A stretch of 64,000 nucleotides of DNA. Source: Bacteroidota bacterium. Its GTDB lineage: Bacteria; Bacteroidota; Ignavibacteria; UBA10030; UBA8401. This document shows positions 15,618 through 59,060 of this stretch, in pieces. Location of the stretch: contig DATJPT010000006.1 in assembly GCA_035506275.1 (NCBI GenBank), forward strand, positions 284,635 through 348,634, given 5' to 3'. The position numbers and the translations under genes were made by a program. The first letter of the stretch is position 1. Each line of letters starts with the position of its first letter. The notes beneath the pieces are model-generated. The model saw only the letters and a list, made by a program, of their open reading frames with translations. It did not search any database and was not told the DNA's origin.

Positions 15618-15660
15618 GCAGAAGACAGGAGACAGTAAGCAGTTAGCAGTGAGCAGGCAG
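15618..15660. repeat. heptamer tandem repeat (RCAGNRA)x6
   Basis: gcagaag acaggag acagtaa gcagtta gcagtga gcaggca, immediately after the CHAT gene stop. Confidence 0.6.
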
Positions 15661-15661
15661 A

Positions 15662-16095
15662 TACTATCGCTGTCCATGTCATTCTGAGGAGGAGCGTTCT
15701 TTGCGACGACGAAGAATCTTTCTTGCCGTATAGATTCCTCGCTGCGCTCGGAATGACATGTAGTCGTTGGTGGCTCCGATATTCTCAAGGTTACTGGGCC
15801 TCTGTCATTCTGAGGAGGAGCGCTCTTTGCGACGACGAAGAATCTTTCTTACGGCGAAAGAGTGAAGGAACCGAGGTCAGTATAGATTCCTCGCTACGCT
15901 CGGAATGACATGTAGTTGTTGCTGGCTCCAATATTCTCAAGGATGCTGAGTCTCTGTCATTCTGAGGAGGAGCGCTCTTTGCGACGACGAAGAATCTTTC
16001 TTACGGCGAAAGAGTGAAGGAACCGAATTCAGTATAGATTCCTCGCTGCGCTCGGAATGACATGTAGTTGTTGGTGGCTCCAATATTCTCAGGGA
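15662..16095 (-). repeat. family-A tandem hairpin array (about 3.3 units, reverse orientation)
   Basis: Units of about 128 bp: GTCATTCTGAGGAGGAGCG...GAAGAATCTTTCTT...TATAGATTCCTCGCTGCGCTCGGAATGAC plus a linker. It is the reverse complement of the arrays at 22076-23200, 26440-27000 and 27355-27935. Confidence 0.7.
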
Positions 16096-16172
16096 ACCCG
16101 AGTCCATGCCGTCAAAAAAAATCCCCGATGCCAGCAGCATGCGGGGATAAAAATTTTATCGCGAAAATTCTC

Positions 16173-17970: not shown

Positions 17971-18088
17971 GAGAGGAGACAGGAGTCAGTAGACAGTAAG
18001 CAGTAAGCAGTGAGCAGTAAGCAGTGAGCAGTAAGCAGTGAGCAGTGAGCAGTAGGAAGTAAACAGTGAGCAGTAAGCAGTAAGGAGT
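17971..18088. repeat. long heptamer tandem repeat (GCAGTRA)x~15, upstream of the ECF sigma gene
   Basis: ...cagtaagcagtgagcagtaagcagtgagcagtaagcagtgagcagtgagcagtaggaagtaaacagtgagcagtaagcagtaagg... read directly from the sequence. Confidence 0.85.
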
Positions 18089-18401
18089 CGGGTACTCCCC
18101 CAGTCCATGTCATCCTGAGCGAGTCCGTTTTTCAGGACGAGTCGAAGGATCCACGACACTGCACCGCCGTCACGGCAGAATCTGCCGTTGCAGAGAGCGA
18201 CGGGGCACCACGCCGTATGGACGTACATGAGGAAGACGGAGATAACCAATGCTTATGCACTGCCTCATCTGCGAAATCAGTCATCTGCGCAAAATCTGCG
18301 TCATCTGCGTAATCACTTCCGCCTTGAGATTCCATCCTTTTTTTTGTACTATGGACAGTCACATTGTTTAGCAGTTTTTCATCACAACAACGACCACCGT
18401 T

Positions 18402-21984: not shown

Positions 21985-22020
21985 TATAGCAGAATCACGA
22001 GAGAGAAGCAAGAAGGAACG

Positions 22021-22068
22021 GCAACAGGTAGCAGCTAACAGTTAACAGTTAGCAGTTAGCAGTTTATA
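22021..22068. repeat. heptamer tandem repeat (AACAGTT/AGCAGTT)x6
   Basis: aacaggt agcagct aacagtt aacagtt agcagtt agcagtt, directly upstream of the DUF2085 gene. Confidence 0.7.
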
Positions 22069-22075
22069 GCCATGA

Positions 22076-23200
22076 GTGAAAAGGGGATGCTTCGGAAGGA
22101 GCATCCGTCGCCGCGCTCCCCAGAATGACAGAGACTCAGCTTCCTTGAGAATATCGGAGTCACCAACAACTACATGTCATTCCGAGCGAAGCGAGGAATC
22201 TATACGGGAAGAAAGATTCTTCTTCGTCGCAAAGAACGCTCCTCCTCAGAATGACAGAGGCCCAGCTTCCTTGAGAATATTGGAGCCATCAACAACTACA
22301 TGTCATTCCGAGCGCAGCGAGGAATCTATACTGACCTCGGTCCCTTCACTCTATCGCCGCAAGAAAGATTCTTCGTCGTCGCAAAGAACGCTCCTCCTCA
22401 GAATGACAAGGACCCGGTTTCCTTGAGAATATTGGAGCCTCCAACAACAACATGTCATTCCGAGCGAAGCGAGGAATCTATACTGACCTCGGTTCCTTCA
22501 CTGTATCGCCGTAAGAAAGATTCTTCGTCGTCGCAAAAAAACGCTCCTCCTCAGAATGACATAGACTCAGCCTCCTTGAGAATATTGGAGCCACCAACAA
22601 CTACATGTCATTCCGAGCGAAGCGAGGAATCTATACTGACCTCGGTTCCTTCACTCTTTCGCCGTAAGAAAGATTCTTCGTCGTCGCAAAGAACGCTCCA
22701 CCTCAGAATGACACAGACCCAGCTTCCTTGGGAATATTGGAGCCACCAACAACTGCATGTCATTCCGAGCGCAGCGAGGAATCTATACTGACCTCGGTTC
22801 CTTCACTCTATCGCCGTAAGAAAGATTCTTCGTCGTCGCAAAGAACGCTCCTCCTCAGAATGACAGGGATCCAGCTTCCTTGAGAATATTGAAGCGACTA
22901 ACAACCATATGTCATTCCGAGCGTAGCGAGGAATCTATACTGACTTCGGTTCCTTCACTCTTTCGTCGTGCGAAAGATTCTTCGTCGTCGCAAAAAACGC
23001 TCCTCCTCAGAATGACAGAGGCCCAGCTTCCTTGAGAATATTGGAGCCACCAACAACTACATGTCATTCCGAGCGCAGCGAGGAATCTATGCTGTCGTCG
23101 TTTCCTTCACTCTTTCGTCGTGCGAAAGATTCTTCGTCGTCGCAAAAAACGCTCCTCCTCAGAATGACAGAGACGGAACTAGATTCCGCTACTTAATTAT
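22076..23200 (+). repeat. family-A tandem hairpin array (about 8.5 units of ~128 bp)
   Basis: It begins with the hairpin GGATGCTTCGGAAGGAGCATCC. Units run CAACAACTACATGTCATTCCGAGCG(A/C)AGCGAGGAATCTATAC[...]AAGAAAGATTCTTCGTCGTCGCAAAGAACGCTCCTCCTCAGAATGACAGAG-linker. Each unit is a long imperfect hairpin, and units differ by indels in the loop. The ORF-track 'proteins' containing CHSERSEESI are translations of these repeats. Confidence 0.8.
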
Positions 23201-23256
23201 CCAGACCCCAATCTGCGTAATCTGCAATCAGCGCAAAATCAGCGCCATCTGCGTAA

Positions 23257-26061
23257 TCACTTTAGCAGAAGCATCTTTCTCGTCTCTATAAACCTTCCAG
23301 ACCTGAGGGTGTAAAAATATGCGCCGCCGGCAAAGCTGGCTCCGTTGAACGCCGCACGGTTCAACACTCCCGCCTCAACGCTGCCGTTCACGAGAGTCGC
23401 AACCTCTTCCCCAAGCGTGTTGTACACTTTCAGCGTCGCGATGCCCGACGTCGGCACCGCAAATTCGATGCTGGTTTCCGGGTTGAACGGGTTCGGGTAA
23501 TTCTGTCCGAGCAGTATCGTATTCGGCGCCAACGTCATCGTTGCTTCCACTTCATCGCTGTACTCAAAGTTTCCGTTGCGGTCAATCTGCTTCAGACGGT
23601 AATTGTAGCTCCCAACCACCGCGGATGCATCCTTGAAAGAATAACGATGCACGCTGCTGCTCGTTCCATACCCGTGAACAAACCCTATTGTTTCCCAACT
23701 GTTCATTGTTGATTGTTCATTGTTCATTGTACTCCGCTCCACCTCAAACCCGTAATTCTCCGTCTCCGTCGCCGTCGTCCAGCGAAGCTCGACCCCATCC
23801 TCCGCCGCACGAGCCGTGAACGAACTCAGCTCGACGGGAAGATTGGTCGCGACAAAACTTGACTCGGCAGCGTCGTTCGCTGAACCCTCTGTTCCAGCCC
23901 CTCCTGCCGATGTTTTTGAATCGAGCCCGAAGTCGCTTACCGACCCGATATTCACGAATTGAACCACGTGGCCCGAAGCCGGAGCCGTCGTTGAATTTGC
24001 GGTCGGCGCCGCAAGCGAGGCGATGCTCCCCGGTTTACTGCCATGACTGAGGGAATGAATATGGCCGCCGCCGGAAGTCAGGATCTCAAGCGCATCGGCG
24101 GTGCCGGAAATATCGAAGCCGCTTGCACCGCCGGTAAAGTACGTCGCGTTGGTGTCGCTGACGACGAGTTTCTTATCCGAAATATCAAAGTCCTGCGCTT
24201 GCGCGTTTCCCTTTCCAAGAAGAACAATGAACGTTCCTTTTGGTACTGATGACCAGAGTGCTGCATTCGAAAACACGACCGGCGTCTGCGCATTGCCGGC
24301 GGAGCTGTAGTCGCGAAGCTGCATCCCGCGCATATCCAGGTTGTTCTGGATGACCAGAAGCTCGACCCATTCCCCGCTTTGCGCCGATGCATTAAAATAC
24401 TCGTTCACTACGACGGTTGGCGACGACGAAGCGGCTCCGGTGGTGTAGGTGACCTGGTCTTTCGACGAAGGGAAATTGTCCGTCTTATAGTTGCGCTGAC
24501 AACCGCTTCCGTTGTAGGGATAAATCCTGAACGAGTAGCTGGTCAGACTCAGGAGGCCGGTACACTGCAGCGAATCTCCGCTGCCGTACGGGACATTGAC
24601 AACCGCCGAACCGTCGCCGAGGTTGGTATCGTTCGAATACGTTACACCGTCCACAGGGTCGCTGAACGCGTTCGTGGTATTCGCGAGGATAAGATAGCCG
24701 GAGGGAACGGTACCTCCGGCCGAGTCGATCCACCGGATCGTGATTGAGGAGTTCGTGATCGTCGGTGTCGTAAGGTTGAACCCTCCCGGATACTTTGATG
24801 GCTCGGCGGCAAGCGTTGCCGACCCTGTCGTTGCACTGCAGGAAGGGACCGTCCCGTCGATTTTGTAGTTGATCTGCGACGACGAGCCGTTATAAGAATA
24901 CATATGCACATAGTATGTCGTTCCGCACGAGAGGCCGGTGAACTGGTGCGACGTCCCCCCGCTGTTGGCCACATTCACTACCGCACGGTTGTCGGTCAGG
25001 TCCGTGTCGTCGGCATAGACCGAACCGTCTTCGGGCGTGAAATAATCGTCCGATGCGTAGAGCTCGATCAGGTACCCGGAGGGCTGCTGACTCCCTGCCG
25101 CGGCGTTCGTCCAGCTGACCGTCAGACTGGACGAAGTGACGTTCCCTATCGCAAGGTTCGTCACATGGTTGGAAGGTTCAACGGCATACGTCGGAGTCAG
25201 TTTCGAGAGGTCGTTGAAGTTGATATAGTTCGCCCACTCGGGATGATCGACAAACGGATTGCGGTTGTTCTGGATCGATTGGATATAGTTGTTCCGCGAT
25301 ACTTCCCACGCGTCGGGAGGGTCGTCTTTATTCCACTGCAAAAGAAGGTTCACATCCTGTGCTGCTTCGCTCAGCGAATCGAGTATAACATTGTTGAGAT
25401 GATTGAATGTCCAGTCGTAGCCATTCACGCCGTTATAGCAAACGGCCATGTAGAAAAGAGCGCGTGCGAAATCCCCCTTGTGCGACTGACGAGGCTCGAA
25501 GACGGTATGCCCGCTCGCATCCGTTCCGACCTTGCACGCCAAAAAAGTGTATGTTGGAGAAACAACGACTCCCTCAGGATGATTGCTCCTCGGGTCGTTT
25601 GCGTGTACCTGATTCACGGGAAAAAGGTGATGCTGGTCGGAATACTCAGGCAAGCTTGTAAAATTGGATGCGTGCGCGCTCGGCATCCAACTCTGGCACC
25701 AGGAGTGCTCGCGGCTGAATCCCGAGTCATTGTTCACTCCGGCGTTTCCCCACCATTTAAAGGGCGGCGTGTAAACGTAGTTAAGCCCGGAATACACACA
25801 CGTCACAACTTTCTGCCCGTTCGTCGTATCGCGCGAGGCGAAGTTGGCAATGTTCGTCTCATCGTAATTGTCGTAGGTGATGCGGGTGTGAGGATTGATC
25901 AGGTTCTGGAGGTCAGTGACAAAGGTCGCGCTTGATGTGGAAATACCGTCGAAGTAAGTTCCGGGCTGCGCCCAGAGGGATAATGATTGAAGAACGATCA
26001 GAGAGACAAGAACGCCGAGGCTCTTCCTCGATGTTCTCAAAGATTTCAAACCAGCGCCCAT
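23257..26061 (-). CDS. secreted T9SS cargo protein: endonuclease I family nuclease + FN3 repeats + lamin-tail domain + T9SS C-terminal sorting domain
   Basis: 934 aa; signal peptide. The N-terminal domain shows the Endonuclease_1 pattern (HLFPVNQ...SHKGDFARALFYMAVCY...NNRNPFVDHP). An LTD-like segment reads VVVNEYFNASAQSGEWVELLVIQNNLDMRGMQL. The CTD reads GQNYPNPFNPETSIEF...LKVYNTLGEEV...KMLLLK. Confidence 0.7.
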   Translation of the reverse strand: MGAGLKSLRTSRKSLGVLVSLIVLQSLSLWAQPGTYFDGISTSSATFVTDLQNLINPHTRITYDNYDETNIANFASRDTTNGQKVVTCVYSGLNYVYTPPFKWWGNAGVNNDSGFSREHSWCQSWMPSAHASNFTSLPEYSDQHHLFPVNQVHANDPRSNHPEGVVVSPTYTFLACKVGTDASGHTVFEPRQSHKGDFARALFYMAVCYNGVNGYDWTFNHLNNVILDSLSEAAQDVNLLLQWNKDDPPDAWEVSRNNYIQSIQNNRNPFVDHPEWANYINFNDLSKLTPTYAVEPSNHVTNLAIGNVTSSSLTVSWTNAAAGSQQPSGYLIELYASDDYFTPEDGSVYADDTDLTDNRAVVNVANSGGTSHQFTGLSCGTTYYVHMYSYNGSSSQINYKIDGTVPSCSATTGSATLAAEPSKYPGGFNLTTPTITNSSITIRWIDSAGGTVPSGYLILANTTNAFSDPVDGVTYSNDTNLGDGSAVVNVPYGSGDSLQCTGLLSLTSYSFRIYPYNGSGCQRNYKTDNFPSSKDQVTYTTGAASSSPTVVVNEYFNASAQSGEWVELLVIQNNLDMRGMQLRDYSSAGNAQTPVVFSNAALWSSVPKGTFIVLLGKGNAQAQDFDISDKKLVVSDTNATYFTGGASGFDISGTADALEILTSGGGHIHSLSHGSKPGSIASLAAPTANSTTAPASGHVVQFVNIGSVSDFGLDSKTSAGGAGTEGSANDAAESSFVATNLPVELSSFTARAAEDGVELRWTTATETENYGFEVERSTMNNEQSTMNSWETIGFVHGYGTSSSVHRYSFKDASAVVGSYNYRLKQIDRNGNFEYSDEVEATMTLAPNTILLGQNYPNPFNPETSIEFAVPTSGIATLKVYNTLGEEVATLVNGSVEAGVLNRAAFNGASFAGGAYFYTLRSGRFIETRKMLLLK

Positions 26062-26439
26062 TCAGCAACAGCACCATTCTCCCCCCCGCGATGAATTAAT
26101 AATGTGAATTATGAATTACGAATCTCTTCGTACGTAAGATCCCATCGTTCGGCGCCGGCCCATTCCGACCATTCCACAATGTACCCGGCGTAGCGTTGAT
26201 TTAATGTACATACGGCAACCCGGCGGGACGATGACCAACAGCACGCATAATGAAAAAATAAACAAACGGCGGAAGAAATACCAGCGGCAACCCCGTTTTA
26301 TTCCCCGTTACCCCCTCCGCCCGAAGGTTCGAGGGGATGGCTTTGCAAGACCTCCGCGGAGGATCCATGACGCTGCATTTCCGTTACACTGGAATGTACC
26401 ATCAGAAACGCCTGCGGTCACCAATTCGTAGTGTCATGG

Positions 26440-27000
26440 ATTCTCCCAAAGGGATGCTTCGGAAGGAGCATCCGTCGCTGCGCTCCTCAGAATGACACAG
26501 ACTCAGCATCCTTGAGAATATTGAAGCCACCAACAACTATATGTCATTCCGAGCGCAGCGAGGAATCTATGCCGTTAGAAAGATTCTTCGTCGTCGCAAA
26601 GAACAGTCCTCCTCAGAATGACAGAGATTCAGCTTCCTTGAGAATATTGAAACCACCAACGACTACATGTCATTCCGAGCGAAGCGAGGAATCTATGCTG
26701 TCGTCGGTTCCTTCACTCTTTCGCCGTAAGAAAGATTCTTCGTCGTCGCATAGAACGCTCCTCCTCAGAATGACAAGGACCCGGTTTCCTTGAGAATATT
26801 GGAGCCACCAACAACTACATGTCATTCCGAGCGTAGCGAGGAATCTATGCTGTCGTCGGTTCCTTCACTTTTTCACCGTGTGAAAGATTCTTCGTCGTCG
26901 CAAAAAACGCTCCTCCTCGGAATGACATAGACTCAGTAACCTTAAGAATATCTGAGCCACCAACAACTACATGTCATTCCGAGCGTAGCGAGGAATCTAT
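26440..27000 (+). repeat. family-A tandem hairpin array (about 4.5 units)
   Basis: Same unit as 22076-23200. It starts with the GGATGCTTCGGAAGGAGCATCC hairpin and ends abutting the GIY-YIG gene. Confidence 0.8.
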
Positions 27001-27001
27001 C

Positions 27002-27277
27002 TTAAAATCTGACCTCTTCAAAATTAGGGTTTATCGATGAGATGAGATCAATTTTTTTCTGCCTCCCCCACCCCTTAATTTGCTTTTCTCTCGAAATTGC
27101 GTCGCGCACGTCAGAGTACTCTTCAAAATACACTAACTTCGAAATTTTATAGCGAGATGTGAATCCGGGATTCGAATGCATGCAGTGCTCGGCTACCCGG
27201 CGTTCTAAGTTATTTGTCAACCCTGTGTACAACGTCATCTTTCTATTTGTCATTATATAGATGTAGTATTTGCGCAT
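27002..27277 (-). CDS. GIY-YIG nuclease family protein (UPF0213-type, standalone)
   Basis: 91 aa; YIYIMTNRKMTLYTGLTNNLERRVAEHC is the GIY-YIG core. The gene is a low-GC insert sandwiched between two family-A arrays. Confidence 0.75.
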   Translation of the reverse strand: MRKYYIYIMTNRKMTLYTGLTNNLERRVAEHCMHSNPGFTSRYKISKLVYFEEYSDVRDAISREKQIKGWGRQKKIDLISSINPNFEEVRF

Positions 27278-27354
27278 GTTTCTCCCCTAAAGAATGGCTT
27301 TCATGAGGCCTGAGTGCCTGAGAACAAAAGGCGGACCGAGACTATTTGTCACCC

Positions 27355-27935
27355 CGAGCCAGCGAGGGGTCCCTGCGGTAAGAAAGATTCTTCGTCGTCG
27401 CAAAAAACGCTCCTCCTCAGAATGACACAGACTCAGCTTCCTTGAGAATATTAAATCCACCAACAACCACATGTCATTCCGATCGCAGCGAGGAATCTAC
27501 ACAGGAAGAAGAACGCTCTTCCTCAGAATGACATAGACTCAGCTTCCATGAGAATATTGGAACCACCAACAACTGCATGTCATTCCGAGCGCAGCGAGGA
27601 ATCTATACCGCAAGAAAGATTCTTCGTCGTCGCAAAGAACACTCCTCCTCAGAATGACAGAGACCCAGCTTCTTTGAGAATATTGGAGCCACCAACAACT
27701 ACATGTCATTCCGAGCGAAGCGAGGAATCTATGCGGCAAGAAAGATTCTTCGTCGTCGCAAAGAACGCTCCTCCTCAGAATGACAGAGACTCAGCTTCTT
27801 TGAGAATATCGGAGCCACCAACAACTACATGTCATTCCGAGCGCAGCGAGGAATCTATGGCGTTAGAAAGATTCTTCGTCGTCGCAAAGAACGCTCCTCC
27901 TCAGAATGAAAGAGACGGAACTAGACTCCGCTACT
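27355..27935 (+). repeat. family-A tandem hairpin array (about 4.5 units)
   Basis: Same unit as above. The terminal ~100 bp (27908-28005), including the AATCTGCG..CATCTGCGTAATCAC element, are near-identical to 23163-23262. Confidence 0.8.
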
Positions 27936-27998
27936 TAATTATCCAGACCCCAATCTGCGCAATCTGCAATCAGCGCAAAATCAGCGCCATCTGCGTAA

Positions 27999-30900
27999 TC
28001 ACTTCAGCAGAAGCATCTTCTTCACGTCCCGTTTCCCTCCCGACTGCAGTACATAAAAGTATATCCCCGAGCTCAAGCATCCCGCATTCATCCGAACACG
28101 ATATCGCAGGTTCGCGTCCGCATCTCCATCGAACAGCGACATCACTTCCTCACCGAGCGTGTTGTACACTTTCAGCGTCGCGATGCCCGCCGTCGGCACC
28201 GCAAATTCGATGCTGGTTTCCGGGTTGAACGGGTTCGGGTAATTCTGTCCGAGCAGCATCGTATTCGGCGCCAACGTTATCGTTGCTTCCACTTCATCGC
28301 TGTACTCGAAGTTTCCGTTGCGGTCGATCTGCTTCAGACGGTAATTGTAGCTCCCAACCACCGCGGATACATCCTTGAAAGAATAACGATGTATGCTGCT
28401 GCTCGTCCCCTGTCCCGCCACAAACCCAAGCTTCACCCAACCGTTCATTGTTGATTGTTCATTGTTCATTGTACTCCGCTCCACCTCAAACCCGTAATTC
28501 TCCGTCTCCGTCGCCGTCGTCCAGCGAAGCTCGACCCCATCCTCCGCTGTGCGAGCCGTGAACGAACTCAGCTCGACGGGAAGCGGGACATTCCCCCACG
28601 AGGTTGCGACACGAATGCCGTCAATTCTCAGCGTCGGTGCCGTCCCCGCTCCTCCTTGCCGCAGCGCAATGGCTCCGATGCTCTGGGCGTCGTTCTCCCC
28701 GGCGGGAGCGCTTGCCGAGGGGGTATGTTCCGGCGCGTTCAACGGCGGATCGACAAAAAGATCGGCCGTGTCGTCGGTGTCAGATTTATTTTTGAACGTG
28801 TATTTCAAAACGAGAAGATACGTCGTGTTGTACGAATAGACAGCGCGCGTATAGTTCGGCTCCGTGCTGCTCTTGCTTACGCCGAAGGCAAGCTTGCCGG
28901 CGCTGTCTTTCACAAAGACGCGCCCCGTGAACGTTCCGAGGGAACTGGTGCTGAAATGGAAGAAGAAATCTCCGCCGCTTTGGGCTGCGCTCACATTGAC
29001 AAGCATCGACGCGTACACCGACCCGCTGGCGATCGTGAAAAACGTGACATGGTCGTCTTCCCCGCTGGACGACAGCTGCGCGGCATTGCCGATGCCGGAC
29101 GAATGATATCCCGCGTAGGTCAATCCGGGAGAAACGACGCAGATCGGGTTCGTCCCTTCCGCGCCGTGAGCGCTCCAGCCGTCGCCGGTGATCGGCCCGG
29201 AAACGGCGTACGGAAAATTCTCGACAACGATCGCGTTCGTCGTCTCGAATACGCCGGAGGTCGGGTTGATCAAACCTCCGGTGTTCGAGGCGGTCAGGCT
29301 GACGCCTAACTCCCCTTTCGTGAATCTGATATCATCCCATGAAACTGACCCCGACGACAGAACTTTCGTTAACCCGGATGCCGAACCCGGCGCGTCCGTC
29401 CCGGACGCAAGAAGTATTGTGACATTCCCGTGAGCTTCCGTGTCTTTATTGTTGTTCGCGTCGCGCGCTTCAAGCGAAACGCTGATGTTCGTGTTCAGGT
29501 TCGCGAACTGGACCGGAGCAGCGATAAACACGAGCTGCGTCGCTATGACTCCGATCGCATTTTTCGCGGAGTCCGAGACCGCGGCCGGGAACAAACTCAT
29601 CTGAGAGCTTGTCACGTCGTTCTGCGTGATGGTGTTGGCCGGTGTCAGCTTGAACTGGAAGACCTGTCCGTCGTGGAGTCCCGACGTCTTCAGCGAGATC
29701 CTGAGCGAGAGTGTTTTTGTCCCCTTGCTTGGCGCGGTCGCGGTAAAATTACCGAACACGAGCGAAGCCGCTCCGATCGTCCCGCTTGCGAGATGCGTCG
29801 ATCCGTCGAACAGGTCGGCCGCAAGAATTGCGCTCGACCAATCGGCGACCTTGTTGGCCGGGCCTTGCGTGAATGTCAGCCCTGTGACAATGGTCGGCTT
29901 CCCGTCGCCGTCCGACAATGCCGCTCCCCCGTCCCGGATCTTGACCTGCCACACCTGGGTCCCGGTCGTCGATGTGAGCGGCGAAGGATGATTTGAGATG
30001 GAAGAGATCGCAGCCGTTTCTGAACCCGCGATAGCGACGATGTCGCTCAGCGATGCGGCGGCAGTTGCTCCGGTTGTCTTGCTTCCGGTCAGCGGGGCCG
30101 CAGTCAGATAATTTGTGCCGTATCCTTTTCCGTTGAAGGCGAAGACCTCGTAACCGTACGTGGTTGATGCGGTCAATCCTTCTTCCGTGAATGATGTTCC
30201 GCTGCCGGCATATTCCACAACGCCGTCTCCGATGGTTTGACCGGCAATATAGGAATTGCCGTCGGCGGGAATCCCCGTCGGCAATGCGCTGGTGCGGCGG
30301 AGAACGAGGTAGCTTTCCGCGGTTGCGGACGGGGTGAACGATACCTGCATCGACGTCGAGCCGACGTTCGAAAAAACGAGCGCGGTCGGCTGCGACTTCG
30401 GCTCGGACTCGGGACCTGCGGTGATCGTGATGTCGTCGATGCTGATCTTCGGACGGCTCCCCGTCGTTCCGCCGGTGCCGTTATAACAATAGAACCGGAT
30501 TCTCGCCGCCGAGCAGTTCTTAAGATTTTGAGGAAGCGGAATCCCGGAGAGAGTCCCGAACGACAACGCGCCGTTGACGAGATTCAGCACCGCGGCCGCG
30601 GTCAGTTCGGTGAAGGCGGCGCCGTCCCCGCTCGTATAAACGCGGAGCGATGCGCAGCGCGGGCTGGCGCCGACGGTGCCGTTGGTGCTGTCCCCCCATC
30701 GAAAGCTGAGCATCCCCGGCGCAACGCCGGTGAAGTCCACAAAAAGATCGATCGCGGCCGAAGCGGAATTATCCGCCGTGCCGGTGGCGAGGAGAAGAAT
30801 ATTTCCGGTCCCCCGCTGGACGCCGGCGGAGGTACCGGTGGAAAATTTTTGGGTCGGGACGGTGATCCTGATGCCGTCCGGGATCGTGCCGCGCGAATTC

Positions 30901-31099: not shown

Positions 31100-31160
31100 C
31101 AGTTAACAGTTAGCAGCTATCAGTTATCAGCTAACAATCAACAATGAACAATTAACAAGC
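31100..31160. repeat. heptamer tandem repeat (CAGTTAA-like)x8 in the upstream region of the 1027-aa gene
   Basis: cagttaa cagttag cagctat cagttat cagctaa caatcaa caatgaa caattaa. It is followed by the perfect palindrome AGGTCAGACATTCTTGTCTGACCT at 31167-31190. Confidence 0.7.
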
Positions 31161-31315
31161 GTGCGTAGGTCAGACATTCTTGTCTGACCTAACAATTAAC
31201 AAAAATGGGGAGATGGTTTTGGGGAGAAAAAAGATGGGAGAGTAACTGGACCAATATTGGAATTGGTGGGATAAGATGCAAGTGGATTTGGGTACTTGGC
31301 TGCTTTGAGAAGTCA

Positions 31316-31925
31316 ACCCTTCGACGCGCTCCCCCGACTTCGTCGGGGTCGCTTGCTCAGGGTGAACAAGCATTTATTATAATTAAAGAATCTGCTCATC
31401 CTGAGCGAGCCTCGCGAAGCGAGGCGAGCCGAAGGACATCCTGAGCGAGCCTCGCATAGCGAGGCGAGACGAAGGACATCCTGAGCGAGTGGCGCGGCTT
31501 TATCGTGCCACGAGACGAATGACAAGTTGCGCCCTTCGACGCGCTCCCCCGACTTCGTCGGGATCGCTTGCTCCCCGAAGGGGTCCCTTAGGGGACAGGG
31601 TGAACAAGCATTTATTATAATTAAAAAATCTGCTCATCCTGAGCGAGCCTCGCGAAGCGAGGCGAGACGAAGGACATCCTGAGCGAGTGCTGCAGCTTTA
31701 TCGCGGCACGAGACGAAGGACATCCTGAGCGAGTGCTGCAGCCTTATCGCGGCACGAGACGAAGGACATCCTGAGCGAGTGGCGCGGCTTTATCGCGGCA
31801 CGAGACGAAGGACATCTTGAGCGAGTGGCGCGGCTTTATCGCGGCACGAGACGAAGGACATCTTGAGCCCTTCGACTCCCCTGTTCCGCTTTCAGCGGAA
31901 CAGGTTCGCTCAGGGTGAACAAGCT
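31316..31925. repeat. family-B tandem repeat array (two ~216-bp super-units containing ~46-bp GACGAAGGACATCCTGAGCGAG-N24 subrepeats; hairpin-rich)
   Basis: Subrepeat gacgaaggacatcctgagcgagtggcgcggctttatcgcggcacga x~8. Embedded hairpins CCTCGC-gaa-GCGAGG, CCCGAC-ttc-GTCGGG and CCTGTTCCGC-tttca-GCGGAACAGG. Confidence 0.75.
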
Positions 31926-35699: not shown

Positions 35700-35779
35700 C
35701 AGTGATCAGGGAACAGCGATCAGTGATCAAGGTTTTCGGGGGACGGGCGTTCTGACAAAGACGGCAACAATTTTTCCCA

Positions 35780-35965
35780 TTGAGAATATTGGAGCCATCA
35801 ACAACCACATGTCATTCCGAGCGCAGCGAGGAATCTATACGGTAAGAAAGATTCTTCGTCGTCGCAAAGAGCGCTCCTCCTCAGAATGACAGAGACTCAG
35901 CTTCCTTGAGAATATCGGAGCCACCATCAACCACATGTCACCTCGAGAACAACGAAGGGTCTATC
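35780..35965 (+). repeat. family-A hairpin repeat, about 1.5 units
   Basis: ttgagaatattggagccatcaacaaccacatgtcattccgagcgcagcgaggaatctatacggtaagaaagattcttcgtcgtcgcaaagagcgctcctcctcagaatgacagag... Confidence 0.65.
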
Positions 35966-36025
35966 CTGCTTCAACTTAAATGAAATTGAATTTCGTCCGC
36001 CAAATCCTTATTTTTAATTCTCTCA

Positions 36026-36387: not shown

Positions 36388-36445
36388 GCTGACGGTAAAA
36401 TAGTAAATAGTGAAAAGTAAAGGGTGAAGAGTGAATAGTGAAGAG
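36388..36445. repeat. heptamer tandem repeat (NAGTRAA)x6 immediately upstream of the GLUG-protein gene
   Basis: tagtaaa tagtgaa aagtaaa gggtgaa gagtgaa tagtgaa. Confidence 0.65.
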
Positions 36446-44362: not shown

Positions 44363-44587
44363 TGAGATAACTGGCGCCATTTCAAAAACCCAGATCTTGT
44401 CATTCCGAGGAGCGCAGCGGCGAAGAATCCACCTCACGGCAGCAGCACAGAAAGATGAAGGTTCGCTGTCGTAGACCCTTCGCTCCGCTCAGGGTGACAT
44501 GCCGTACTGGTGCACTCGGCTCGATCTTTGTCAGAATAACAATACAAAGGATTTTTGAGATAGCTTCTAGGAAGTCACGGCATCGCT

Positions 44588-58875: not shown

Positions 58876-59060
58876 ATAATTAGGAATTAGGAATTATGAA
58901 TTGAGACTTCTGAGAAACCGGTGTCCAAAAGTCATTCTGAACGGAGCGAAGAATCTATTCGCTCATTTTCAAAAGAAAAACTGGATTCTTCGTCGCTACG
59001 CTCCTCAGAATGACATTACTCAGGCATTTCTCAGAAGTCCCGAATTACGAATTATAATCG
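58876..59060. repeat. composite nested inverted repeat (MITE-like) containing a family-A-type hairpin and GAATTAG heptamers
   Basis: Outer arms aattaggaattatgaattGAGACTTCTGAGAAA / TTTCTCAGAAGTCccgaattacgaattat. Inner hairpin GTCATTCTGAACGGAGCGAAGAATC...GATTCTTCGTCGCTACGCTCCTCAGAATGAC. Confidence 0.55.

Follow-up and report, generated by a model that had tools for sequence, protein, structure and literature searches.

Tandem arrays of tagged inverted hairpins with a probable cognate ssn gene in an uncultured Bacteroidota bacterium

Introduction

SsnA of Neisseria is a GIY-YIG protein of 94 amino acids that recognises the NTS hairpin (CGTCATTCCCGCGMAVGCGGGAATC) in single-stranded DNA alone, does not bind RNA, and cuts a few nucleotides upstream of NTS (CGTCATTCCCGCGMAVGCGGGAATCYRG) (PMC11893778). 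Homologs of ssnA occur in many phyla, where they are flanked by Ssn-related motifs (SRM) (Chenal et al. 2025, PMC11893778). In Neisseria, the NTS copies cluster beside membrane-protein genes, and SsnA lowers transformation by NTS-containing DNA (PMC11893778). Here we describe hairpin arrays in a stretch of 64,000 nucleotides (the window) on contig DATJPT010000006.1 of the metagenome-assembled genome (MAG) of a Bacteroidota bacterium, an uncultured organism. By comparison with these systems, the arrays are probably tandem clusters of inverted pairs of a CGTC/TGTC-tagged hairpin of the repetitive extragenic palindromic (REP) or SRM type, with the cognate ssn gene lying inside the array at 26.4–27.9 kb.

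Two families of repeats described earlier resemble these arrays. The NIMEs are arrays of dRS3 and RS elements, the latter falling into over 100 families; they were viewed in 2007 as specific to Neisseria and were proposed to promote or delimit recombination (PMC1797815). The CGTC-tagged REPs carry an unpaired CGTC tag, replaced by TGTC in many repeats, are mostly found as inverted dimers, and are reported from Bacteroidetes and Chlorobi; no dedicated protein or transposase was found for them (Di Nocera et al. 2013, PMC3733652). The dRS3 element is their family CGTC-1, and clusters were reported to be rare outside Neisseria and Wolbachia (PMC3733652).

Results

The repeat unit is an inverted pair of related hairpins

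The arrays are built on a 25-nucleotide core, GTCATTCCGAGCGNAGCGAGGAATC (25-mer GTCATTCCGAGCGMAGCGAGGAATC), which matches the window 19 times with three mismatches or fewer, against 0.00 matches in 100 shuffles. Together with the arrays delimited by Tandem Repeats Finder and described below, these matches bear out the kilobase-scale arrays that an initial annotation of the window had reported. The core is composed of a 5-bp stem (ATTCC/GGAAT), a tandem G.A/A.G step, a GC and a CG pair, and a G-N-A triloop, with a TGTCA tag at its 5' end and a C at its 3' end. It can be written as TGTCATTCC-GA-GCGNAGC-GA-GGAATCT, where the apex GCGNAGC is a DNA mini-hairpin motif. The copy at 22607–22631 on the + strand, GTCATTCCGAGCGAAGCGAGGAATC, exemplifies this GA-type Ssn-related motif, with a pairing that is predicted and supported by covariation. 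A looser scan of the window with the tagged 5' half of the core returned 48 copies, where 3.6 are expected, which fall into three grades of hairpin according to their number of GAG/CGA steps, from one to three.

Among 36 distinct cores, 94% of the cells are paired, as against 18–52% in slid controls; four of the five variable stem pairs have substitutions in both partners, and the loop base varies freely. The stem opens with A-T and T-A and is followed by C in 29 of 35 cores, while the base before GTCA is T in all window copies and in 71 of the 74 cores taken from other genomes. Each unit had initially been drawn as a single long imperfect hairpin. Nearest-neighbour DNA folding of whole units supports that drawing weakly (z −1.5 to −3.0); it is the core hairpin that is backed instead, by covariation across phyla.

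In an alignment of all units of this type (family A), four parts are distinguished: a 46-nucleotide linker (AGAGACTCAGCTTCCTTGAGAATATTGGAGCCACCAACAACTACAT); the core hairpin, which lies on the + strand and runs into TATR; a spacer that measures 14 nucleotides, or 40 nucleotides when it holds a 26-nucleotide insert (CTGACCTCGGTTCCTTCACTCTTTCG); and module c, an inverted and longer hairpin of the same family that reads GTCATTCTGAGGAGGAGCGTTCTTTGCGACGACGAAGAATC on the − strand. The module c at 22672–22712 (− strand, GTCATTCTGAGGTGGAGCGTTCTTTGCGACGACGAAGAATC) has three GAG/CGA steps and a 7-nucleotide loop. Two related hairpins in inverted orientation, their GTCA ends facing outward, thus make up a unit together with the linker. 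The unit length is 126 bp in the short form, 152 bp in the long form and 106 bp in one unit, values that replace the earlier estimates of a period of about 128 bp and a loop insert of about 30 bp. The insert shares CTGACCTC with ssn and was considered as a remnant of the 3' end of this gene; the candidate was rejected, the local alignment score of 16 lying within the null distribution (mean 14.6, 95th percentile 18).

Unit variation and identity were measured on the 15 complete family A units. With the loop base set aside, a position at which 8 of the 15 units differ, a single variant base is left among 360 bases of the core, whereas spacer and linker together have 97 in 1130 (Fisher p 3e-11). 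Variant bases make up 0.3% of the core, 2.5% of module c, 8.2% of the spacer and 8.8% of the linker; both hairpins are under much stronger constraint within the arrays than the linker and the spacer. Identity is 91.3% between adjacent units, 91.1% within arrays and 89.9% between arrays, with many nearest neighbours found in other arrays. The check for concerted evolution within arrays, suggested with the initial annotation, thus gives no sign of recent local homogenisation, and since the units are about 90% identical whatever the array, the arrays are not products of recent local slippage alone.

An ssn gene occupies one unit of array 3

Numbering the arrays 1 to 4 along the window, the gene ssn (27002–27277, − strand) takes the spacer position of one unit of array 3. 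The left part of this array (26452–27001, + strand) opens with a start hairpin at 26452–26473, as in array 2, and contains cores at 26543, 26669, 26821 and 26973; Tandem Repeats Finder delimits 26571–27000, with a period of 152 and 2.8 copies. The right part (27372–27916, + strand) opens with the closing, inverted hairpin of the unit that contains ssn, goes on with one unit of 106 bp, two of 126 bp and a truncated last unit (cores at 27473, 27579, 27705 and 27831; Tandem Repeats Finder array 27406–27916, periods 106 and 126), and ends at the 3' flank of a 1027-amino acid cargo gene of the type IX secretion system (T9SS). The ends of the unit that bears ssn are those of the units without the gene. 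The core at 26973–26997 directly abuts the ssn stop codon, and the right flank, upstream of the gene, carries a variant core at 27348–27371 (+ strand, GTCACCCCGAGCCAGCGAGGGGTC) and an inverted hairpin ending at 27426. This variant core also flanks ssn in the contigs of two relatives (L106 and L022). The segments 26440–27000 and 27355–27935, which had been listed as separate arrays, are therefore one array interrupted by ssn. The initial annotation rightly noted that the repeats bracket the GIY-YIG gene and T9SS cargo genes; it missed the GIY-YIG gene as the probable cognate, a member of the Ssn family (PMC11893778), and the core as a TGTC-tagged REP/SRM.

The gene is the sole ssn copy in the window, and its 91-amino acid product is made of a single GIY-YIG domain (Pfam, residues 3–75, E 6.5e-17), no other domain being detected. 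Homologs number 589, at 57–98% identity, and are spread across phyla. A tblastn search of PLSDB (7.3 Gb) matched two N. gonorrhoeae chromosomes mislabelled as plasmids (E 7e-13). Aligned with the gonococcal SsnA ortholog, the window protein is 39% identical over 87 amino acids, with a BLASTP E of 5e-22, below the value of 1e-10 that defines Ssn homologs in PMC11893778. The gonococcal open reading frame (ORF) encodes 94 amino acids with Y6, Y17 and E64, the residues mutated in PMC11893778, and the window protein has Y17 and E64 at the same numbers. In the gonococcus, ssnA lies amid 16 NTS copies in 6.2 kb. The PLSDB 'plasmid' NZ_CP119140.1 (L108) is a 2.17-Mb N. gonorrhoeae chromosome, and ssnA is absent from its PLSDB gene table; there, ssnA lies within an NTS repeat array with a super-period of roughly 330 bp.

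The UPF0213 structure 1ZG2 gives only a weak match to the window protein (E 3.4e-5), so that Ssn is not a close relative of UPF0213/YhbQ. PADLOC and PHROGs gave no match, and the sole match in NCBIfam, to a group I intron endonuclease family, reaches 19 bits against a cutoff of 56 and is sub-threshold. Several Ssn homologs in databases are annotated with C-termini ending in ...DSSLRSE, which are read-through into the antisense core hairpin.

The hairpin accompanies ssn across phyla

The association was analyzed in 80 ssn loci from GTDB genomes, picked via an alignment of homologs and drawn from groups that include Chloroflexota, Ignavibacteria, Acidobacteriota, Planctomycetota, cyanobacteria and deltaproteobacteria. 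The density of full GA-type cores within 700 bp of ssn (84 in 106 kb) is 43 times that found farther out in these loci (17 in 928 kb), and the tagged 5' half of the core is found near ssn in 73 of the 80 loci, a 22-fold enrichment. In the commonest layout (59 of the 84 cores), the tags are outermost, with the core on the + strand upstream of ssn and on the − strand downstream; the ssn unit of the window is alike. Tandem arrays adjoin ssn in about 15 of the 80 loci. An Anaerolineaceae MAG carries a 1.1-kb array of 125-bp inverted doublets adjoining ssn, and a related MAG has another unit, of 123 bp, around ssn. For module c, an exact scan gave no match in the GTDB representative genomes, which do not include the source species, and the same scan of JGI metagenomes found one 3.6-kb contig.

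Comparison with described systems

The closest counterpart is the Ssn/NTS system of Neisseria (PMC11893778). Both have a small single-domain GIY-YIG protein whose gene is flanked on both sides by oriented hairpins, the same repeat plan (a 5' (C/T)GTCA tag, an ATTCC...GGAAT stem, a GCG...GC apex and a 3' C), and numerous intergenic copies, which cluster next to genes whose products are exported or lie at the surface. They differ in that the core described here has a tandem G.A/A.G step and a G-N-A triloop and is missed by the published pattern HGTCWYN(0-2)YYVSBRH..., that longer hairpins with two or three GAG/CGA steps also occur, and that the host is an uncultured Bacteroidota with a T9SS, in which the nuclease activity is putative. 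A literature search on the core sequence itself found no relevant paper.

The unpaired tag, the A-T stem start, the short 3' tail and the predominance of inverted dimers, which characterize the CGTC-tagged REPs (PMC3733652), are all found in the cores of the window. Here, however, the repeats form long tandem arrays with a dedicated protein gene inside one of them. The stem of the CGTC-tagged REPs is continuous over 8–9 bp and closed by a loop of 4–5 nucleotides; in the window cores it is broken by G.A mismatches and has nine positions counting the two mismatches, with a loop of 3 nucleotides, which grows to 5 when the last pair is taken as open. Every core has GCG-N-AGC at its apex, N being free, exactly as in the GCGNAGC mini-hairpin (PMC13037366); here a longer stem carries this motif, which serves as a genomic repeat and whose stability in this setting is predicted.

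Like the NIMEs (PMC1797815), the arrays are of kilobase size and intergenic, alternate an inverted-repeat hairpin with repeat segments (50–150 bp in NIME), lie beside genes for surface or exported proteins and vary between strains; the gonococcal ssnA itself is located in such an array. They are far more regular, since essentially a single unit family is present. The hairpin is ATTCC-N15-GGAAT rather than ATTCCC-N8-GGGAAT (dRS3, ATTCCCNNNNNNNNGGGAAT), which places it outside the sequence definition of NIME, and it alternates with segments of 46 and 14 or 40 nucleotides, making the architecture an analogous one. With the REP/BIME and REPIN-RAYT systems, the arrays share a hairpin thought to be recognised as single-stranded DNA, inverted doublets as the dispersed unit, mosaic clusters, and a single-copy gene flanked by repeats thought to be its targets. 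The flanked gene is, however, of the GIY-YIG type, not an HUH/Y1 (IS200/IS605-like) transposase, and the tag is TGTC, not GTAG.

The arrays are REP-type clusters akin to the NIME arrays of Neisseria and fit the Ssn/SRM framework; they are not a new kind of element. The initial view that they differ in kind from REP/BIME clusters does not hold, as the 16 NTS around the gonococcal ssnA illustrate. New here are the GA-mismatch hairpin missed by the published SRM pattern and the arrays beside T9SS cargo genes.

Other arrays and solitary copies in the window

Array 2 (22085–23174, + strand) consists of family A units, with seven cores at 22176, 22302, 22454, 22607, 22759, 22911 and 23063; Tandem Repeats Finder delimits 22209–23174, with a period of 152, 6.3 copies and 91% matches. 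It begins with a start hairpin at 22085–22106, which scores as terminator-like on the − strand, followed by a truncated inverted hairpin and linker and then by the cores; the first unit is 126 bp long and the remainder 152 bp. The array is flanked by the start of a DUF2085 gene on one side and by the stop of the Endonuclease_1 T9SS gene on the other. The start hairpin (GGATGCTTCGGAAGGAGCATCC), initially regarded as a common opening of the arrays, is confirmed at 22085–22106 and 26452–26473 and is missing from the arrays at 15.6 kb and 35.8 kb. Arrays 2 and 3 share the start hairpin and the end flank and are partly paralogous: 22081–22634 is 90.6% identical to 26448–27000, and 22508–23841 is 80% identical to 27375–28583, the latter duplication taking in the 3' 640 bp of both cargo genes.

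Array 1 (15672–16108, − strand; cores at 16061, 15909 and 15757 on the − strand; Tandem Repeats Finder array 15728–16095, period 152, 2.4 copies) is located between the stop of a CHAT/TPR gene and the shared terminator of a convergent LiaF-like gene. Array 4 (35780–35968, + strand) consists of one full unit, a linker and a variant core, GTCACCTCGAGAACAACGAAGGGTC (35937–35961), and lies 60 bp upstream of a tRNA-Leu. A solitary inverted doublet at 44399–44498, downstream of a T9SS/RHS gene, has a two-step hairpin on the + strand (GTCATTCCGAGGAGCGCAGCGGCGAAGAATC) facing a canonical core on the − strand (GTCACCCTGAGCGGAGCGAAGGGTC). A degenerate inverted doublet lies between housekeeping genes at 58931–59014, where a degenerate copy had been reported (58930–59020). 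No target-site duplication is visible by eye around the solitary doublets.

A single related hairpin with a loop insertion (GTCATCCTGAGCGAG...CGAGTCGAAGGATC) is present at 18109–18150 on the + strand and adjoins a (CAGTAAG)n tract. Between two T9SS cargo genes lies family B (31300–31920), a set of related hairpin repeats whose tandem units, CATCCTGAGCGAG-[small hairpin]-CGAGACGAAGGA, measure 40 and 46 bp. It includes a duplicated segment of 210 bp (31317–31524 matching 31532–31768), and its repeats resemble hairpins of the same superfamily that have taken up small hairpins in their loops.

Heptamer-periodic tracts (CAGTAAG, AGCAGTT or AACAGTT, up to 13.6 copies) are seen at 17994–18088, 22023–22064, 15625–15660, 31100–31160, 35700–35730 and 36402–36445, at the edges of hairpin arrays and just upstream of several gene starts. 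Long ORFs run across the arrays on the + strand (22076–22426, 22300–22791, 26431–26793 and 27548–28228), with translations that repeat ...CHSERSEES...; they are almost certainly spurious.

Array content differs between close relatives

Contigs of relatives (L106 from ENA, L109 from JGI, L110–L114 and L022) show that array presence and copy number differ between close relatives. In L114, where adenylosuccinate synthase is 92% identical and the gene order is the same, both cargo genes included, 1.3 family-A-like units are found between the DUF2085 and nuclease genes, as against 7.5 at the orthologous site of the window; neither units at the other two array sites nor ssn were found in its 18.6 kb. 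L111 and L112 have no copies in 21 kb. At the site of array 1, the orthologous spacers carry no array and measure 56–65 bp in L111 and L112 and 233 bp in L114. These relatives of the same gene order with 0 or 1.3 units indicate that the arrays were recently gained and change fast. In the relatives, the flanking genes are only 77–81% identical and the intergenic DNA does not align.

In L110 and L022, ssn is embedded in arrays of different units. In L106, whose Ssn is 98% identical to that of the window, the ssn side of array 3 is joined to the start of array 2, and the intervening 4.1 kb, which include the Endonuclease_1 gene, are missing; this junction reflects a collapse of the assembly unless a segment was really deleted or inserted between the arrays. 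L109 carries a GDSL-lipase/FadL gene pair with family A units at both ends.

T9SS cargo genes next to the arrays

Five genes of the window encode a T9SS sorting domain. Repeats are found in 4 of the 8 intergenic regions that flank cargo genes and in 4 of about 40 others (p 0.018), so that 4 of the 8 repeat-carrying regions adjoin T9SS cargo genes. The cargo gene between arrays 2 and 3 (23257–26061, − strand) encodes a secreted protein of 934 amino acids with an Endonuclease I domain, an fn3 domain and a T9SS sorting domain, so that a gene for an extracellular DNase adjoins the putative single-strand DNA nuclease system. The slot beside DUF2085 (22011–26061 in the window) holds a different T9SS cargo gene in each of the relatives L110–L114 (406, 697, 429, 632 or 932 amino acids) and appears to be a variable cargo-gene slot.

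A (TGTTCAT)n tract occurs inside both paralogous cargo genes (23700–23730 and 28443–28472), where it encodes ...MNNEQSTMN... and lies within the common C-terminal region, whose duplication also involved the array ends. A short periodic motif, ATCTGCGYAATC..., is present upstream of the adenylosuccinate synthase gene (18265–18320) and just downstream of both paralogous cargo genes (23207–23265 and 27946–28005).

Discussion

By analogy with SsnA and NTS, each core would fold when the DNA is single-stranded, as in transforming or conjugative DNA, the lagging-strand template or recombination intermediates; the GC skew of the window is too weak for an assignment of leading and lagging strands. Ssn would then bind the hairpin with its tag and 3' C and cut upstream of it, at the conserved end of the linker. 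Because each unit carries one hairpin per strand, we propose that either strand could be cut once per unit. Arrays flanking a gene might in this way shorten or delimit homologous single-stranded DNA and control the replacement, loss or gain of the genes they bracket, here those of T9SS-secreted proteins. The repeats may have spread as ssn-less derivatives of a hairpin-ssn-hairpin element, helped by unequal recombination.

Several points weigh against pairing the arrays with ssn in this manner. The recognition of module c by Ssn, the cleavage by Ssn and the cut position are what we infer from the Neisseria protein, and the host is not, to our knowledge, naturally transformable. The exact 25-nucleotide core is found on 21 IMG/VR contigs (L001–L021), of which none carries ssn; many copies are thus far from any ssn gene, and about half of the IMG/VR cores belong to inverted doublets of 90–110 bp. 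The association with T9SS genes is suggestive only, two of the loci being paralogous, and the junction in L106 could be an assembly collapse. The published SRM pattern has no match in the window, where 0.37 are expected, and matches near the gene in 1 of the 80 ssn loci, as against 9 matches in the Neisseria locus; it fails on the core because the tandem G.A step violates its S position. Finally, nearest-neighbour folding gives the core alone −2.7 kcal/mol (z −0.7), not better than shuffled sequence. The GCGNAGC mini-hairpin, with two G-C pairs and a sheared G-A pair, is extraordinarily stable (Tm 70–76 °C), a stability that standard thermodynamic models do not capture (PMC13037366), which accounts for the unimpressive energy predicted for the core.

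The reading could be carried further, and this extension we regard as tentative and on the whole doubtful. The inverted doublet with its 46-nucleotide linker may be a non-autonomous derivative of a hairpin-ssn-hairpin element that still spreads through single-strand breaks made by Ssn, a GIY-YIG counterpart of REPIN/RAYT with GA-mismatch 'zipper' hairpins, and the arrays may serve as ports where T9SS cargo cassettes are swapped between strains. The idea of cargo ports comes from the cargo in the DUF2085 slot, which differs per relative, and from the one contig that lacks the nuclease cassette exactly between the arrays. We know of no transposition chemistry for Ssn.

Recombination scaffold and mobile-element debris, both suggested initially, come close to the explanation supported here, and among the rivals the one that survives best is neutral debris: a miniature inverted-repeat element, moved by an unrelated transposase and multiplied by slippage or unequal crossing-over, with the GIY-YIG gene as a passenger or a chance homing endonuclease. 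The copy number that varies between relatives and the absence of ssn from the exact-core IMG/VR contigs agree with it, as does the fact that no transposase dedicated to the CGTC-tagged REPs was found (Di Nocera et al. 2013, PMC3733652); the absence of a target-site duplication to the eye has also been counted in its favour. A passenger would not, however, be expected beside the hairpin in 73 of 80 loci across phyla, and in Neisseria as well, nor would neutral sequence leave the cores about 30-fold less variable than the linker and spacer of the same units. Adjacent units are no more alike than units of different arrays, so that recent local slippage is not the main process, and Ssn has no extra DNA-binding domain of the homing-endonuclease kind, its match to the intron endonuclease family lying far below threshold. 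We therefore hold this explanation to be improbable.

Somewhat less probable still is a role mainly at the level of RNA or transcription, with the arrays acting as REP-like terminators or stabilisers in the 3' untranslated regions of upstream cargo mRNAs. REP elements terminate and stabilise mRNAs in enterobacteria, and arrays 1, 2 and the right part of array 3 begin just after stop codons, before terminator-like hairpins. Such a role leaves unexplained the association with ssn, the strand-specific tag and the need for three to eight copies, and array 4 and the solitary doublets stand in other contexts. It could, as a side effect, be compatible with recognition by Ssn.

That each unit is a gene for a small or structured RNA, repeated in tandem, with the linker as promoter and the hairpin as processed RNA or terminator, was another initial suggestion, and we consider it very unlikely. 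The units can be drawn as hairpins, and every one of them has a sigma-70-like match (ATGACA-16-GAGAAT, 9/12), but this match is weak and atypical of Bacteroidota, and its many occurrences reflect only the repetition of the unit. No Rfam family is found in 21.9–28.1 kb even at E ≤ 1, and at the gathering threshold the whole window yields two tRNAs only. The conserved parts are two short inverted hairpins with a DNA-specific mini-hairpin apex, a conservation fitting a DNA hairpin recognised by a protein, and the nature of this apex favours a function at the DNA level over one at the RNA level. The same hairpin flanks ssn in many phyla and in both orientations, and SsnA does not bind RNA (PMC11893778). 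An assembly artefact, conceivable for repeats that are hard to assemble in a MAG, has a negligible probability, as the same units turn up on contigs obtained independently, from other samples and with other assemblers (L106 from ENA, L109 from JGI), and differ by about 10%, enough to assemble through.

For genome annotation, the pairing of the arrays with ssn would explain kilobase-long 'hypothetical protein' ORFs and the ...DSSLRSE C-termini as read-through into repeats, and for biotechnology it offers a candidate pair of enzyme and site for site-specific cutting of single-stranded DNA. As the published pattern misses the GA-type class, surveys based on it may under-count such systems. The sampled Ssn clade pairs with a distinct class of hairpin, marked by tandem G.A mismatches and a GCGNAGC apex, and long regular arrays of inverted doublets beside ssn recur in several phyla. 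The Ssn/hairpin system, studied experimentally so far only with Neisseria and Wolbachia proteins, would thereby be extended to an uncultured Bacteroidota bacterium that bears a T9SS.

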